From Candidatus Latescibacterota bacterium (GTDB taxonomy: Bacteria; Latescibacterota; UBA2968; SICM01): a stretch of 64,000 nt of DNA. A model generated the notes under the pieces. It was given only the letters and a program-made list of their open reading frames with translations. It did not search any database and was not told where the DNA came from. Positions 33,958 to 44,923 of the stretch are shown here, in pieces. Each line of letters starts with the position of its first letter. Position 1 is the stretch's first letter. The stretch spans positions 5,152,001-5,216,000 of the forward strand of contig CBDCJO010000002.1 in the NCBI GenBank assembly GCA_965217865.1, given 5' to 3'. The position numbers and the translations under genes are program-made.

Positions 33958-34970
33958 ATGCAAACAATAGAGCGATATGATGCGATCATCATCGGCACGG
34001 GACAATCCGGACCTTCCCTGGCAGCGGACCTGGCCGACGCAGGAAAACGGGTGGCGATTATCGAGCGGGGGCGGTTCGGGGGCACCTGCGTGAATACCGG
34101 CAGCACCTGATCATCATCGGCGGGAGCTATATCGGGTTGGAGTTCGCTCAAATGTATCGGCGATTTGGCAGCGAGGTGACAGTCGTCGACAGGAATTCAC
34201 ACTTGATCGCAAGGGATGATGAAGACATTTCCGATGCGGTCCGCGACATCGTGGAAAACGAGGGGATCAACATCCGGCTAGAGGCTGAATGCATTACGGG
34301 GGAGAATCGGGGAGATCAGGTCCTGGTCAAACTCGATTGCGAGCGTGGGGACAGGGCGGTGGCCGGATCGCATCTCCTGCTTGCGGTTGGGAGGACGCCC
34401 AATACGCAAGACCTGGGGTTGGAAAAGGCGGGGATCGAAGTCGACGAGCGCGGTTACATTGTCGTGGATGACCAGCTCCGCACCAGCGTGCCCGGGGTCT
34501 GGGCGTTGGGCGACTGCAACGGGAAGGGGGCTTTTACCCACACTTCATACAACGATTACGAGATCGTTGCCGCCAATCTGCTCGAGGAAGATCCGCGCCG
34601 TGTGAGCGACCGTATCCTCGCCTATGCCCTGTACATCGACCCGCCGTTGGGACGCGTCGGGATGACGGAAGCCGAGGTCCGTAAGTCCGGGCGCAAAGCC
34701 CTGATCGGGAAAAGGCCGATGACGAAGGTGGCCCGGGCGGTGGAGAAGGGAGAAACACAGGGTTTTATGAAAATCCTGATAGATGCCGAGACCAAGGAGA
34801 TTCTGGGTGCGGCGATACTGGGAATCGGGGGGGACGAGATCATCCATTCGATCCTCGATATCATGTATGCCAGGGCACCATACACGGTGATCCAGCGAGC
34901 CATGCACATCCACCCTACGGTGTCAGAACTGATCCCGACTATGCTGGGCGAGCTCAAACCCCTGGAATAA
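33958..34970 (+). pseudogene. FAD-dependent pyridine nucleotide-disulfide oxidoreductase (RclA/MerA-like) with an internal frameshifting deletion
   Basis: MQTIERYDAIIIGTGQSG..GGTCVNTG is joined directly at about 34100 to HLIIIGGSYIGLEFAQ in another frame; the C-terminus ends HIHPTVSE. Confidence 0.85.
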
Positions 34971-35282
34971 CGCACATCGGGTCCGGAAAACGTGCAACTT
35001 TCAGGATTTCAAAGCGTTTATACTTCAAATCACTCTTGTTGTGAACGATCGCGCAAATGTTGTGCTGAAAATCACACAACCATATAAGTGATTGTTAACA
35101 AAAAAATAACGAATTTAAAGATCTTAAAATTGTGTGATTTAAAACTTTAGGAGAAGATCCACGACTCAGGATGGTCTGGCTTTTCCTTTATGGTTTTTCG
35201 TATAAATAGTATAGTTTTCAAATAGATGAACTCCACCTACTCCTTCTTCTGACGAAATGTCGGAATCCGGCATAGTTTTTCC

Positions 35283-36485
35283 ATTCTGTATTCACTTTCC
35301 AATTATCTCGGGAAGGTGGTGTTCGTCAACTTCATCGGGTGGAGTTGACCGCATTGCATCACGGACGGTCCGCCCGTGGAAAAGAACATCTGGCAGAGAT
35401 TTAAGGATGAGGAGTTCCAGGCCCTGGGCGTCGAGATATGGGATGGGGGGGCCGCAGATGTGAATAGATTTTTCGTTGGGCTTACGAAAACAACTTACCC
35501 CGTCCTGTTAAAGGGAGGCCGCGTTGGGGCCCAATATGGTGTGGATCGTGCCACTTACATGGTAATGGACCAGGAGGGCATCGTTCGTTACCGGTCGGAA
35601 GGGAGACTCGGGCAACGCTACGACGAAGAGACTCTGATTTCAGTTATTCAGATTCTGTTGACCCCGGCGAATACCCCCCCGCGTATCGTCAATCCAATAC
35701 CGGACCAGGGCGGGGTCGGGATCAATACCATCAGGATCGACCTGGAAGGTTTCGTAGAGGACACGGAGGAGGGTCCCGCCAATCTGAACTGGCACGCAGA
35801 TGGGTTCGATCCCGAACTGATCATTGTCGGAGGACAGATGTCTGCAGGTCCACTGAAGTTCACACCCAGGCAGGATGCGCTGGGTCGAAATTTCAACATC
35901 TTGTTGATCGTGACGGACAGCAAGGGGGCCACGGCGGAGCAAGAGATCGCGCTTCGTCGGCTTCCGGCCGTTTTGTCCATCTCATCGGAAAATTTGAACT
36001 TCGGAGATGTGTTTGTGGGTTCCTCCCAGACCCTGAAGTTGAAGGTGTCGAACGAAGCTGAATCCGACGGGGAGGACCTGACTGTCGATCTGGCTTCCGT
36101 CAGTCCGACCTTCAGCGTTCCGGGCTCATCGGTGACGGTTCCTGCGGGAGAGTCCCGGGAGATCTCGATCGTGTATCGGCCGACAGAGGCGATATCATCC
36201 TCCGGAGAGCTGACGTTTTTGACGAACGATCCGGACCGAGAGTCGTTTGGAGTGTCTTTAACGGGGGTGGGATTGACCCCTCTGGATCTCCAGGTGGCCG
36301 TCACGGATTCGGATTTCGACGGGGACGGAAGGATCGACTTCGACGATTTCTTTTTGTTCGCAGGGGCGTTCGGGGGAACGAATCCTCTGTTCGACCTGGA
36401 CAGAAGCGGTCGCGTGGACCTGGACGATTTGTTTATCTTCGCGACTGATTTCGGGAAGATGGCAAAACCAGACGATGGACGATAA
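35283..36485 (+). CDS. Selenoprotein redoxin (UPHC) + Ig-like + ASH/choice-of-anchor D + EF-hand/dockerin-like tail; 5' end truncated or frameshifted
   Basis: In-frame YSLSNYLGKVVFVNFIGWS-TGA(35346-48)-PHC continues into track ORF 35376-36485; paralog of 36845-38182; no clean start or signal peptide. Confidence 0.75.
35360..35378 (+). promoter_or_regulatory. SECIS-like hairpin
   Basis: CACGGACG-GTC-CGCCCGTG starts 11 nt after the UGA. Confidence 0.7.
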
Positions 36486-36844
36486 AACCCTTCCGCTCAT
36501 CCCCACCGGAATACAGAATACAGAAGACAGGAGTCAGAAGAAAACCTTAATTCAAATCAGTCGGCGAGACATGAGAGTTCAGACGTGAGACGTGAAACGG
36601 CAAAAGGCAGTAGCAGGTGGCAGTGGCAGGAATGGCAAAGGCAGGGGTCAGAAGTCGGAGGTCGGGGAAATCGTAGCTTCGACGGAGTTTATCCTGAGCT
36701 AGTCGAAGGGCTCAGGACGTGGCTTTCCCAGAACGGGAAGGGGAAAATGGCCGTTAATTTAGCAAAATGTCAACCACAAGGTCGGAGGAAATCGAAGATC
36801 GACTTTAGACCAGAACGAGTACCGATAAGGGAAAACGGTTCGGT

Positions 36845-38182
36845 ATGAAAAGGGTCATTTGGTTATTCATAGGGCTGGTCTTCTGGTCTGCAGGACCGAA
36901 CGCACCTGCCGTCTCCGCGGTGAGGGTTGGGGAAAACGCTCCGGATTTCACGTTGAAGGGGTTGGATAACAGGAATTATTCCCTGTCCGACTACCGTGGA
37001 AAGGTGGTGTTCGTCAACTTCTTCGGGTGGAACTGACCGCATTGTATAACGGACGGTCCGTCCGTTGAGAATAAAATCTGGCAGCGGTTTAAGGATCAGG
37101 AGTTTCAAGCCATCGGCGTTGATGTGTGGGACGGAAATCCGGATGGCGTAACGAAATTTTTCGTCGGGTTGACCAAGTCGACCTATCCGGTTCTAACCAA
37201 AGGCGGCCGGGTGGGGAGCCAGTACAGATTGGGCAACAATCACTTCATCGTTATCGATCAGGGGGGAGTTGTCCGATGGGTGTCGTCGGGAAGTCTTGGC
37301 AGTCGCTTCAATGAGAATGCCATCGTCTCCACCATCCAGTCTTTGCTTCCTCCTCCGAATACCCCACCAACCATCACCTCGTCGATTCCCGACCAGTCCG
37401 GTTCCGGGACAGAACCCATCGAGATCGACCTGGCTTCATTCGTTTCAGACGAAGAGGACGGCCCTCAAGATCTAATGTGGCGCGCCGAGGGATTCGATCC
37501 GGAGTTGATCGGGGTCACGGAAAATGGAACCGAAGGAGGGATGCTGAGTTTCACACCCAAGCCTGAGGTGCTGGGCCAGGATATTTCGGTTCTGTTGATC
37601 GTATCGGATACTCAGGGGGGTACCGCGGAGCAGTCGATCATCCTTCGGTGGACATTCCTGCCCGCGGTCCTGTCGGTCTCGATGGAGGATCTTAACTTCG
37701 GGAGCGTTTACGTCGGTTCCTCTCGGACTCTAAATTTGATCGTATCGAATGGAGCAGGTCCGGGTGGGGAGGACCTGGAAATTAGACCCTCCTCCGAGAG
37801 TTCGTCCTTCAGTATCGGGGACTCGTCCGTCTCGGTTCCGGCCGGAGAATCCCGGGAGATCTCAATCGTGTACCGGCCGATTGACGAGGTCATGTCTACC
37901 CACGAATTGACGTTCTTGACGAACGATCCCGAACACGAAGTGTTCGGGGTGTCCTTAACGGGATCGGGTCTGCCCCCGCTGGACATCCAGGTTGCTGTTT
38001 CGGATACTGATTTCGATGGGGACGGGAGGATCGATTTCGACGATTTCTTTATGTTCGCGGCGGCCTTCGGAGGAACGGATCCGGTTTTTGATCTGAATAA
38101 GAGCGGCCGTGTGGACTTCGACGATTTTTTTATCTTTGCGACTGACTTTGGAAAAATTGCGAAACCAGACGATGGACCATGA
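36845..38182 (+). CDS. Secreted selenoprotein: AhpC/TSA-TlpA redoxin (U64xxC) + Ig-like + ASH + EF-hand/dockerin-like tail (445 aa)
   Basis: Signal peptide, APDFTL..GKVVFVNFFGWN-TGA(37034-36)-PHC; the frame continues uninterrupted into track ORF 37124-38182. Confidence 0.88.
37048..37066 (+). promoter_or_regulatory. SECIS-like hairpin
   Basis: AACGGACG-GTC-CGTCCGTT perfect stem starting 11 nt after the UGA, with G in the loop. Confidence 0.8.
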
Positions 38183-38350
38183 AAGGCTGTCAAACGTGAG
38201 ACGTGAAACGGTAAAAGGCAGTAGCAGTAGCATGTGGCAGCAACATTCATTTGCCGGGAGAAGTAAAGTGATTTATATTATCGATAACCTCCTTCCCGTT
38301 CCTCATACCCTTGGGATTTCAAAATAGCCGGGTATCAGGAGGGCCGTCAA

Positions 38351-39259
38351 ATGCGGACAATGTTGATCGCTATTTCGACGATTCTGATCGGGTTCTCGGT
38401 TGCACAAGCATCCCCGTGGACATTGCCCAGGGGGGAGTTTTACGCACGGGGAACCGCCCTGGGTTCCCGATCCCGATGGCAGTTCAATAACGACTCGAAC
38501 AGGGTGAAGTTTCTGAATAATGGGCTCAGTCGAATGGTCGGGACTGCCGTCGACGGATCCTTCGGACTTCGTGATGACCTGATGGTCTCGATCGGAGTTC
38601 CCGTCATATTCTACGGTCTCCGGGATGATGATATCCAGGAGGAGGGTTTGAGCTTGGGGGATATCCGAATTTCAAGCCGATATCGTTTGTTTTCCAAAGG
38701 CCTGGTCGTGTCCCTGGAGGCGGGGGTGAAATTTCCCTCGGCCACACAGGTGGATCCTGCACGGGTACAGGTTGGTGAGGGGCAATACGACTTCGACGGC
38801 CTCGTTTCCTTCGGGTTTCTCTGGCCTTCAAAGGAAGGGTATTCAAGTATTGATGCGGGATATCGCATCCGCCGGAGGAGTGAGAAGACTGCGTTTAAAC
38901 CGGGAAATGAATTTATCTACCGGTTCGAAAGCGGATATCAGGCTGGCGACCGGGTTTCAATGCGGTTGAGCCTGGACGGATTCAAGAGTGAGATGGGGAA
39001 TACGGAGGTGTTCGGTGTTGCCGTTCCTACCCGCTTCTCAAATCGAAATCTCCTGGCGGTTGTGCCCGGCATCACACTGGCTGTAAAGGATAAACTTGGC
39101 CTGGATATGAACATCAACATCCCGGTTCTGGGACGGAACTATTATGCCGGAAGTCAGTTTTTTATCGGCCTTTCGTATAACAGCCTCGGGGTCCGGGCGT
39201 CGCTCAATCAATCTACCATCTCCGCTCCCCAGGGAGGATCGTGCTGCAGGATCCAGTAA
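38351..39259 (+). CDS. Outer-membrane beta-barrel 'transporter' (MetA-pathway/COG4313-like) with Cys-Cys C-terminal extension
   Basis: Signal peptide (AQA), alternating amphipathic strands, 'SLGDI', 'GEGQYD' and 'PGNEF' motifs; ends GGSCCRIQ. Confidence 0.65.
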   Translation: MRTMLIAISTILIGFSVAQASPWTLPRGEFYARGTALGSRSRWQFNNDSNRVKFLNNGLSRMVGTAVDGSFGLRDDLMVSIGVPVIFYGLRDDDIQEEGLSLGDIRISSRYRLFSKGLVVSLEAGVKFPSATQVDPARVQVGEGQYDFDGLVSFGFLWPSKEGYSSIDAGYRIRRRSEKTAFKPGNEFIYRFESGYQAGDRVSMRLSLDGFKSEMGNTEVFGVAVPTRFSNRNLLAVVPGITLAVKDKLGLDMNINIPVLGRNYYAGSQFFIGLSYNSLGVRASLNQSTISAPQGGSCCRIQ

Positions 39260-39315
39260 TCGGAAGGATTCCGGAGAAAATTTGTAGAAGGCAATTCATC
39301 AGATCGGAGGTTATT

Positions 39316-39843
39316 GTGAAGTTTCCAAAGGTGATGGTGATTCTTCTTTTAATCGGGATGTTCTCCGTGCTTGGGGCACCTGTCTGGGCAAAGCCGTCGG
39401 TCTCCCGGGGGGATACGCTCACGGATTTCTCACTGAAGAGCATCGACGGCAAGGCCTTCCGACTGAGTGAAACCTATGGCAATAAAAAGGGACTCATCCT
39501 GACGGTGGGTGCGAGCTGGTGAGGGACCTGCCGGGCGGAGGTCTCCATCCTGAAAGATGTTTATAAGAGTTATACTCCAAAGAATATCGAGATGCTGTAT
39601 ATCAGCGTGGAGAGCAGGGAAAAAGCATCCGCTTACGCGAAGAAGAAAGAACTTCCCTATACCGTGCTTGTTGACGAGAATGCGGCGGTTGCGAAGAAAC
39701 TGGGTGTCTCGGCCATCCCCGCCCATTTCATACTCGATGCAGAGGGAAAGGTCCTCTTCAGCAATGTCGGAAAGCTCAAGAACCACGAAAAGTTGCTGAA
39801 CGAGCTGGTGGCGGAATTAGAAGCCGATAAGGAAAAGGGCTAA
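39316..39843 (+). CDS. Exported TlpA/redoxin selenoprotein (U69GTC, 175 aa)
   Basis: GGAGG RBS + GTG, signal peptide, DFSLKSIDGK..GASW-TGA(39520-22)-GTCRAE continues into ORF 39592-39843 (GVSAIP..ILDAEGK). Confidence 0.88.
39523..39545 (+). promoter_or_regulatory. SECIS-like hairpin
   Basis: GGGACCT-G-CC-GGGC-GG-AGGTCTC stem-loop immediately after the UGA. Confidence 0.65.
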
Positions 39844-39867
39844 CCCGCATTCCTGCGTCTCCTTTCG

Positions 39868-39922
39868 AAAAAAAAGGGTTGTTGATCTCAGGCTGAACGG
39901 CCGGATGAACGCCCTTTTTTTT
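39868..39922 (+). terminator. Probable (bidirectional) intrinsic terminator closing the selenoprotein cluster
   Basis: A-run-GGG...CCC-T-run flanking an imperfect stem. Confidence 0.6.
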
Positions 39923-43770: not shown

Positions 43771-44066
43771 ATGCCGAGGTCACATTCGCCGTATCCACCG
43801 GAGTTCAAGCGGCAGATTGTAGAACTGGTGCGAGCGGGTCGCACGCCCCATGAGTTGTCCCGTGAGTTCGAGCCGTCGGCCCAGGCGATCCGGATCTGGA
43901 TGAGGGCCTCCGCAGTGACGGTCTGATCACCGAGGAGCGGGAGGAGATCAGACGACTGCGCCGCGAGAATAGGCAGTTGCGACAGGAGCGGGAGATCCTT
44001 GCAAAAGCCGCGGCCTGGTTCGCTCGGGAGACCAACTCGGTGCCAGGGGAGTCTACGAGTTCGTGA
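43771..44066 (+). pseudogene. IS3 orfA (HTH) with a small frameshifting deletion near 43890
   Basis: MPRSHSPYPPEFKRQIVELVRAG..AQAIR, then a frame switch to DLDEGLRSDGLITEEREEIRRLRRENRQLRQEREILAKAAAWF. Confidence 0.8.
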
Positions 44067-44923
44067 AAGCCAATCAGGCCTTCTATAAAGTAGCCACGAT
44101 GTGCCGGGTCCTGGAAGTCTCCACCAGTGGGTACTACGCGTGGCTCAAGCGGCCGCTGTCGGCACGAGCGCAGGCCGATGTGGCTCTGACGGAACGGATC
44201 GTGAAGATTCACAAGTGTTCTGATGGCACCTACGGTGTCCCGCGCATATACGAGGAGCTTGTAGCCGAGGGGGAGCGGATCGGTCGCAAGCGCGTTGCGC
44301 GGTTGATGCGTGCTGCAGGCCTGGAGGGCGTAAGTCGTCGCAAACGGCATCGAACCACCTACCGTGATCGCGATGGGCGCGTCGCTGCTGACCTGGTCAA
44401 TCGAGATTTCACGGCTAACGGGCCAGACCAGCTCTGGGTAGCCGACATCACTTACATCAGTACGTGGGCCGGCTTCCTGTATCTCGCGGTCGTTGTGGAC
44501 GCCTGGAGCCGCCGCGTCGTTGGCTGGGCGATGGCGACCCATCTGCGCGCCGAGCTGGTGCTCGAGGCGTTGAATATGGCGCTCTGGCAACGACAGCCGG
44601 AAGCCGTCATCCATCACTCCGACCAGGGATGTCAGTACACCTCCATTGCCTTCGGTCTACGGTGCCGCAAGGCCGGTGTCCGGCCCTCTATGGGCTCCAC
44701 CGGTGACTGCTACGACAACGCGTTATGCGAGAGCTTCTTCGCCACGCTCGAATGCGAACGCCTGGATCGCCGAAACTACCGCACACAGGCCGAAGCCCGG
44801 ATGTCCGTATTTCAATACATCGAGGGCTGGTACAACTCCCATCGGCGACACTCAGCACTCGGATATCTCTCTCCAATGAACTTTGAGCAGACCTCCAGCG
44901 CTGTTGCCCATGAAGCCGAATGA
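44063..44923 (+). CDS. IS3 transposase orfB (DDE integrase core)
   Basis: WVADITY, HHSDQGCQY and DNALCESFF motifs. Confidence 0.95.
   Translation: MKANQAFYKVATMCRVLEVSTSGYYAWLKRPLSARAQADVALTERIVKIHKCSDGTYGVPRIYEELVAEGERIGRKRVARLMRAAGLEGVSRRKRHRTTYRDRDGRVAADLVNRDFTANGPDQLWVADITYISTWAGFLYLAVVVDAWSRRVVGWAMATHLRAELVLEALNMALWQRQPEAVIHHSDQGCQYTSIAFGLRCRKAGVRPSMGSTGDCYDNALCESFFATLECERLDRRNYRTQAEARMSVFQYIEGWYNSHRRHSALGYLSPMNFEQTSSAVAHEAE

Follow-up and report, generated by a model that had tools for sequence, protein, structure and literature searches.

SECIS-type hairpins after in-frame UGA codons in tandem redoxin genes of a Latescibacterota bacterium: support from the gene family and the weak case for a compensatory pair

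The 64,000-nucleotide stretch of a Candidatus Latescibacterota genome analyzed here (the window) carries two tandem paralogs on the + strand, copies 1 and 2, each of which has an in-frame UGA in the U-x-x-C motif of a predicted redoxin and a hairpin downstream of it. We regard both hairpins as very likely SECIS elements of the bacterial type, because the genome encodes a selenocysteine (Sec) machinery, TGA occupies the catalytic site in nearly all homologs, a bacterial SECIS model fits most TGA homologs but none of the Cys homologs, and the GGUC of the hairpins lies at the offsets seen in Escherichia coli fdhF. For the intact members of the family, we hold a SECIS function with high confidence. 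The initial annotation had proposed a functional SECIS in both paralogs; our results strongly support this for copy 2 and for the family as a whole, and make it doubtful for copy 1, whose N terminus is lost in this strain.

Table 1. Locations of the redoxin genes, their UGA codons and hairpins, and further candidate selenoprotein genes (hairpin positions counted from the base after the UGA, +1)
Feature	Location	Strand	Description
Copy 1	35289..36485	+	5'-truncated UxxC redoxin + Ig-like + EF-hand/dockerin-like
In-frame TGA, copy 1	35346..35348	+	GWS-U-PHC
SECIS-type hairpin, copy 1 (very likely)	35360..35378 (+12..+30)	+	C-G outer pair; A35365·C35373 mismatch; GGUC 35367-35370
8-nt junction	35288..35295	.	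Start of copy 1 similarity to family, from comparison with copy 2
Copy 2	36845..38182	+	Complete; 445-aa predicted selenoprotein
In-frame TGA, copy 2	37034..37036	+	Predicted Sec64 (GWN-U-PHC), aligned to the first Cys of the CxxC motif of ResA-like proteins
SECIS-type hairpin, copy 2 (very likely)	37048..37066 (+12..+30)	+	8 bp; A-U outer pair; GGUC 37055-37058
UGSC candidate (L163)	G000:C2:3955119
DUF3179 candidate (L164)	G000:C2:4474866
AhpD/CMD candidate (L165)	G000:C2:4319422
OsmC-like candidate (L166)	G000:C2:4110522

A complete and a truncated redoxin gene

Copy 2 encodes 445 residues when its in-frame TGA is read through, and it ends with an ordinary TGA stop (38180 to 38182). In Pfam, residues 28 to 150 match AhpC-TSA (PF00578, 54.3 bits against a cutoff of 26) and Redoxin (PF08534, 43.1 against 26.6), residues 281 to 362 match an Ig-like ASH domain, and the C terminus yields subthreshold EF-hands. 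Among the NCBIfam models, the matches to ResA (NF002854, 59 bits, cutoff 170), TlpA (NF047696, 24.8 bits, cutoff 230), choice-of-anchor D, and the GC-type dockerin (NF041540, 20.9 bits, cutoff 29) all stay below cutoff, so that the tail is called dockerin-like only, and none of the NCBIfam selenoprotein models reaches its cutoff. The closest solved structures are ResA/TlpA-like, with the U opposite the first Cys of the CxxC motif (e.g., PDB 2ls5). At the N terminus, a basic stretch followed by a hydrophobic one suggests, from hydropathy, a putative signal peptide.

Copy 1 agrees with copy 2 at 257 of the 400 positions aligned. Its N-terminal part, about 45 residues with the signal peptide and the first strand, is missing from each of the three forward frames; no evident in-frame start lies upstream of its UGA, and an in-frame stop is found 13 codons 5' of the point where similarity to the family begins (35288 to 35289). 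Truncation through a frameshift error or a misplaced repeat was considered and rejected, because the 200 nt upstream of copy 1 occur only once in the genome and hold no N-terminal homology in the three forward frames. One 5,055-nt contig from run X1, which may be the source sample, crosses the junction as in the window, with one difference. Contigs from runs X8 and X14, which belong to other studies, instead carry in-frame coding letters 5' of 35288, reading FKLTGLDSKE in X8 where copy 2 has FTLKGLDNRN, and further contigs of both runs diverge from the window 3' of 35295. A pattern scan of metagenomes for other alleles gave no matches. In G038, a genome of the same family, the gene order is the same and both redoxin genes are complete. 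These comparisons make it likely that copy 1 lost its 5' end in a strain-level deletion reaching from one copy of the 8-mer to another, with the junction as its likely microhomology scar. Since such a deletion would have taken the 5' end away, copy 1 has probably become a pseudogene here, and we consider it nonfunctional in this strain with good, if not full, confidence.

Several features flank the pair. Upstream of copy 1, a pyridine nucleotide-disulfide oxidoreductase gene (33958 to 34970, +) appears internally deleted: its N-terminal part (GxGxxG...GGTCVNTG) breaks off near 34110, and in the next frame the Pfam match begins only at profile position 155 of 291, making it likely a second broken gene adjoining copy 1. 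Directly 3' of the redoxin pair lies a PF13557 family gene (38351 to 39259, +), in the same order as at locus L010 of G038 and with a CC motif at the end in both (GGSCCRIQ in the window, GACCRIQ in G038). The segments 36486 to 36850 and 38183 to 38250 belong to a family of intergenic repeats, of which many partial copies are spread over the genome and whose contig depth is high, and a reading frame at 44063 to 44923 (+) resembles an IS3-type transposase.

Sequence and geometry of the two hairpins

In copy 2, the arms AACGGACG (+12 to +19) and CGTCCGTT (+23 to +30) enclose the loop GTC, with a folding energy of about -11.2 to -11.3 kcal/mol; in copy 1, the arms CACGGACG and CGCCCGTG give -8.0 kcal/mol and contain an A17·C25 mismatch. 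The TGA codons lie at 35346 and 37034, each in a U-x-x-C motif, and the initial annotation had described both stems, their start 11 nt after the UGA, and the single mismatch of copy 1 correctly, base for base. It had left unstated that this mismatch stems from a nonsynonymous change (TCC Ser to CCC Pro), and that +14 is a paired C in both copies, without the bulged U17 of E. coli. One X14 contig (record 15, depth 2) with intact upstream letters is identical to the window from 35288 to 35429; because this allele carries the A·C mismatch as well, the mismatch appears to be older than the deletion, and the putative SECIS of copy 1 appears unchanged from the intact allele of another strain.

The likeness to fdhF on which the annotation relied also stands. 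The fdhF hairpin of E. coli (NC_000913.3) likewise sits inside the open reading frame, with its stem starting at +12 and GGUC at +19 to +22, that is, at equal offsets. In the E. coli numbering, as given in the part of PMC8659212 that treats it, the key bases are G23/U24 and the bulged U17 (equal to +14). Under a strict comparison, the window hairpins thus share the 11-nt spacing and have G20/U21 as equivalents of G23/U24, but they lack the bulged U; their arms are perfect in copy 2 or carry one mismatch in copy 1, and the register of the family shifts by clade. Both hairpins also fit the bSECISearch model set out in section 5 of PMC13188914, which asks for a loop of 3 to 9 nt at 16 to 37 nt from the UGA, a G in the first two loop positions, an upper stem of 4 to 16 bp, and a minimum free energy of at most -7.5 kcal/mol. 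The window hairpins have a loop of 3 (or 5) nt with G20 as the first base of GUC, a spacing of 18 to 19 nt, stems of 8 to 9 bp (copy 2) and 7 bp (copy 1), and energies of -11.3 and -8.0 kcal/mol; an in-frame UGA at the Cys position of homologs and SelA, SelB, SelD, and tRNA-Sec in the genome complete the agreement.

Taken singly, neither hairpin is more stable than its dinucleotide shuffles (copy 1, z = +0.59; copy 2, z = -1.48), and shuffles among synonymous codons give a p of about 0.04 for copy 2 and about 0.12 for copy 1. An Rfam scan of positions 34900 to 39900 returned two chance-level matches only and no SECIS family. An alternative fold of 4 to 5 bp (pair sum 38) was rejected as far weaker (-4.6 versus -11.2 and -3.3 versus -8.0 kcal/mol).

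Homologs across the phylum

A search of 168 genomes of the phylum detected the redoxin domain in 93, all from the class of the window; of the 132 matches, 127 have a TGA inside and five have no stop. Among the best 123 matches, which were read out after leaving aside the nine weakest (each with one TGA), the site aligned to CxxC is TGA in 118 and TGT or TGC in five, and no other stop type occurs there. SelB is present in 128 of the 168 genomes and in 91 of the 93 with the redoxin domain; the two domain-bearing genomes without it are 80% and 75% complete. Since kin are not independent, the underlying events are fewer than these counts suggest. A search for related loci among genome contigs found 42 distant relatives and no close one.

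The public gene calls of close relatives (P0002, P0004, P0006, and P0007) begin 3' of the TGA, and therefore both signal peptide and catalytic residue drop out of their annotation. The C termini fused to the Sec-redoxin domain vary among the relatives L167, L168, L170, and L171: L168 has a T9SS-type tail and L170 five Ig-like repeats, and a serine-hydrolase/beta-lactamase-like domain occurs as well. One relative of family f4 ends with a T9SS-type sorting domain rather than a dockerin-like tail; the T9SS sortase match in the genome of the window is below cutoff. In genome G040, the gene forms a tandem array of three, of which two are Sec and one is Cys.

Constraint on the region after the UGA at the level of the family

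For family-level tests, we used the 68 TGA and five Cys sequences that are distinct over +10 to +33. Shuffling synonymous codons in this interval gave a mean z of -1.98 for the TGA set, with z below zero in 67 of 68, compared with a mean of +0.06 in control windows of the same genes (n = 408); singly, p is at most 0.05 in only 33 of the 68. The hairpin signal is limited to the position after the CxxC-aligned TGA. The five Cys homologs had z values of -0.83, -1.31, +1.50, -0.06, and -2.14, so that one of them (L042, p = 0.04) folds well too. In our own implementation, the bSECIS model fits 61 of the 68 TGA homologs and none of the five Cys homologs, and it is loose enough to accept ordinary TGA stops (57 of 300) and control windows (89 of 272) as well. 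The initial annotation had named equal conservation of the hairpin in Cys homologs as evidence against its proposal; this applies, in part, only to the nearest Cys gene (L010 in G038), which keeps a 5-bp core and the loop, and not to the Cys homologs as a set.

At +15, the third position of a codon, 67 of the 68 TGA homologs have G, over eight different amino acids; in four-fold degenerate codons G occurs in 62 of 63 cases against a background of 32%, a stronger constraint than in any other of the 22 tabulated codon columns, and two of the five Cys homologs have G there. Position +19 is G in all 68 TGA and all five Cys homologs; since it is a first codon position and G in every Cys homolog, it may be fixed by the protein. 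Position +14 is U in none of the 68.

The best stem register varies by clade, with a pair sum of 36 in 31 sequences, 38 in 14, 41 in 15, 42 in six (the register of the window), and two others. The check for covariation across homologs that the initial annotation had suggested was carried out with tree clades as groups, and it came out positive, with few events, in clades f4 and f2/f3 and null in the clade of the window. In f4, 91.9% of cells are paired (31 to 54% in slid controls) and three pairs changed on both sides, as reached by 11 of 500 shuffles; in f2/f3, 82.1% are paired and two pairs changed on both sides (14 of 500 shuffles), with a second register (+11 to +16 with +22 to +27) doing no better than shuffles. 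In both groups the few events come from genomes that are related, and the same sequences served to derive the structures.

The outermost pair of the stem

The initial annotation had based its argument on two silent changes, ATA to ATC at +12 and GTT to GTG at +30, that replace the closing A-U pair of copy 2 with C-G in copy 1. The changes are synonymous and the pairs are as described, yet the inference of a compensatory change is not supported by comparison within the clade, which has five members: copies 1 to 3, the G038 Sec gene, and the G038 Cys gene. Here, +12/+30 is A-U in copy 2, C-G in copy 1, C·U in the third paralog and in the G038 Sec gene, and U·U in the G038 Cys gene, i.e., it is paired in two of five members and broken in the other three, two of which are Sec genes, and the covariation seen is equaled or exceeded in 401 of 500 shuffles. 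The part of the stem that is invariant in this clade lies further inside (+15, +16, +18, and +19 with +27, +26, +24, and +23).

In the tree, copies 2 and 3 form one group (100/97) and the G038 genes another (99/90), with the G038 Cys paralog nested among Sec genes. Parsimony over the five rows places C at +12 and U at +30 in every inner node; from this unpaired C·U ancestor, copy 2 would therefore have become paired through C12A and copy 1 through U30G, two separate single changes. With the codon usage of the genome, the probability that both copies pair, given that both sites differ, is 0.06, so that the pair is only marginally beyond chance, and the probability that two single changes from C·U both lead to pairing is about 0.13 with the same codon frequencies. 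The use of ATA, at 10.6% the rarest of the genome's Ile codons, makes weak selection for a longer stem possible. In sum, the +12/+30 pair is weak evidence and cannot carry the SECIS claim.

Sec machinery and further candidates in the genome

SelA, SelB, and SelD are all encoded in the genome above cutoff, together with a tRNA-Sec, which is the tRNA with anticodon TCA; the SelD gene contains one in-frame TGA of its own. The third paralog (L162, G000:C2:3523264, - strand) is complete, with the motif GWR-U-PDC and a redoxin domain 90% identical to that of copy 2, and is followed by an IS-like reading frame. Within the window, the cluster contains a third candidate selenoprotein gene, ResA/TlpA-like (39316 to 39843, +; TGA at 39520, GASW-U-GTC), with a hydrophobic N terminus and a hairpin that holds GGUC in its loop at +18 to +21. 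Four more genes with an in-frame TGA, a SECIS-type hairpin, and a confirmed domain belong to the UGSC, DUF3179, AhpD/CMD (CxxU), and OsmC-like families (Table 1); they were chosen by eye and do not make up a complete selenoproteome, and screening the whole genome de novo for TGA genes, with coding score and hairpin as criteria, gave noisy results. Among the nine candidate genes examined (the three paralogs, SelD, these four, and the TlpA-like gene in the window), eight have GU in the hairpin loop at +19 to +23, the exception being SelD (L005), whose loop is UCA, without a G.

DISCUSSION

In bacterial Sec insertion, SelB-GTP-Sec-tRNA binds the SECIS loop and brings Sec to the UGA, and a U-x-x-C motif within a ResA-like fold is a thiol-disulfide redox center. 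In the genes described here, the SelB/Sec-tRNA complex would thus read the upstream UGA as Sec in the active site of a ResA/TlpA-like redoxin. SelB would bind G19-G20-U21 in the loop, where G20 and U21 take the place of G23 and U24 in E. coli, and the conserved 5-bp core (+15 to +19 with +23 to +27) may serve to keep the loop at the right distance, leaving the outer pairs at +12 to +14 optional; the outermost pair may have closed separately in copies 1 and 2 from C·U, whether by chance or under weak selection. Copy 2 and the third paralog would then yield full-length Sec proteins, with a signal peptide, the Sec-redoxin, an Ig-like stalk, and a dockerin-like tail, that may act as extracytoplasmic thiol-disulfide reductases, presumably exported and displayed on the stalk.

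It would be a stronger claim that the +12/+30 pair is truly compensatory and maintained by selection, and that both paralogs are functional selenoprotein genes in this strain. We consider this unlikely: the synonymous nature of both pairing changes, the rarity of ATA, the probability of 0.06, and the presence of the copy 1 mismatch in the X14 allele with intact upstream sequence all speak for it, yet the pair is missing in three of five close homologs, Sec genes among them, parsimony explains it by two independent changes, and copy 1 has neither its N-terminal residues nor an evident start. Far less probable still is that the hairpins are a by-product of the peptide I-T-D-G-P-S-V and of GC content, with the TGA acting as a genuine stop, by which the genes are split or inactivated. 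A TGA found exactly at the catalytic Cys in almost every homolog, to the exclusion of other stops, its co-occurrence with SelB, the excess stability at a fixed peptide sequence, and the near-invariant synonymous G15 are hard to reconcile with such an origin, which could otherwise draw on the weak single-sequence z-scores, the database gene calls of relatives that begin after the TGA, and the roughly one-third of control windows that pass the loose model. We assign the least weight of all to a genome-wide reassignment of UGA to Trp or Gly, or to its readthrough as Cys without a SECIS; nothing specific favors it beyond the existence of Cys homologs, whereas TGA terminates ordinary genes here (copy 2 included), the TCA-anticodon tRNA is tRNA-Sec, and the hairpin signal is confined to the site after the CxxC-aligned TGA.

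With the SECIS reading thus preferred, recoding by SelB and a SECIS in a UxxC redoxin is a known, textbook mechanism, and the gene family fits the already known Prx-like/ResA UxxC class of selenoproteins as a new member. The tabulated selenoproteins in PMC13188914 include a Prx-like thiol:disulfide oxidoreductase (PF00578, UxxC/UxxU) and a Redoxin family protein (PF08534, UxxC), and a Prx-like UXXC family appears in the pertinent part of PMC1088965. Copy 2, assigned by domain and motif, matches these classes in PF00578, PF08534, and a UxxC at the CxxC position, but differs in its fused Ig-like stalk and EF-hand/dockerin-like tail. We found no paper on a fused dockerin-tailed Sec-redoxin family in a search of openly available articles; large selenoproteome supplements could list the family. 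The Cys gene of G038 recalls the remnant SECIS-like structures that, in the portion of PMC1794560 that describes them, follow Cys codons after a Sec-to-Cys conversion: like these, it keeps the 5-bp core and the loop, which fits a recent Sec-to-Cys change, but it differs in being one of a paralog pair in a genome that still has SelB.

Our results also caution that a "compensatory pair" seen in two sequences can be an artifact of two independent changes. A correction of the gene calls would affect a family present in 93 of the 168 genomes of the phylum, and the synonymous constraint on G15 across the family, together with the clade-specific registers, provides SECIS determinants outside E. coli that can be tested. 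It is tempting to speculate, as a tentative idea that we judge more doubtful than probable, that the SECIS of this family slides, with four stem registers by clade and loops at +16 to +22, while G15 (synonymous) and the loop base G19 stay fixed relative to the UGA. If true, SelB of this lineage would read G15 and G19 by their distance from the UGA, not by a fixed helix, and without a bulged U, and the family would be a natural mutagenesis panel for bacterial SECIS recognition, with 68 variants and five Cys revertants.
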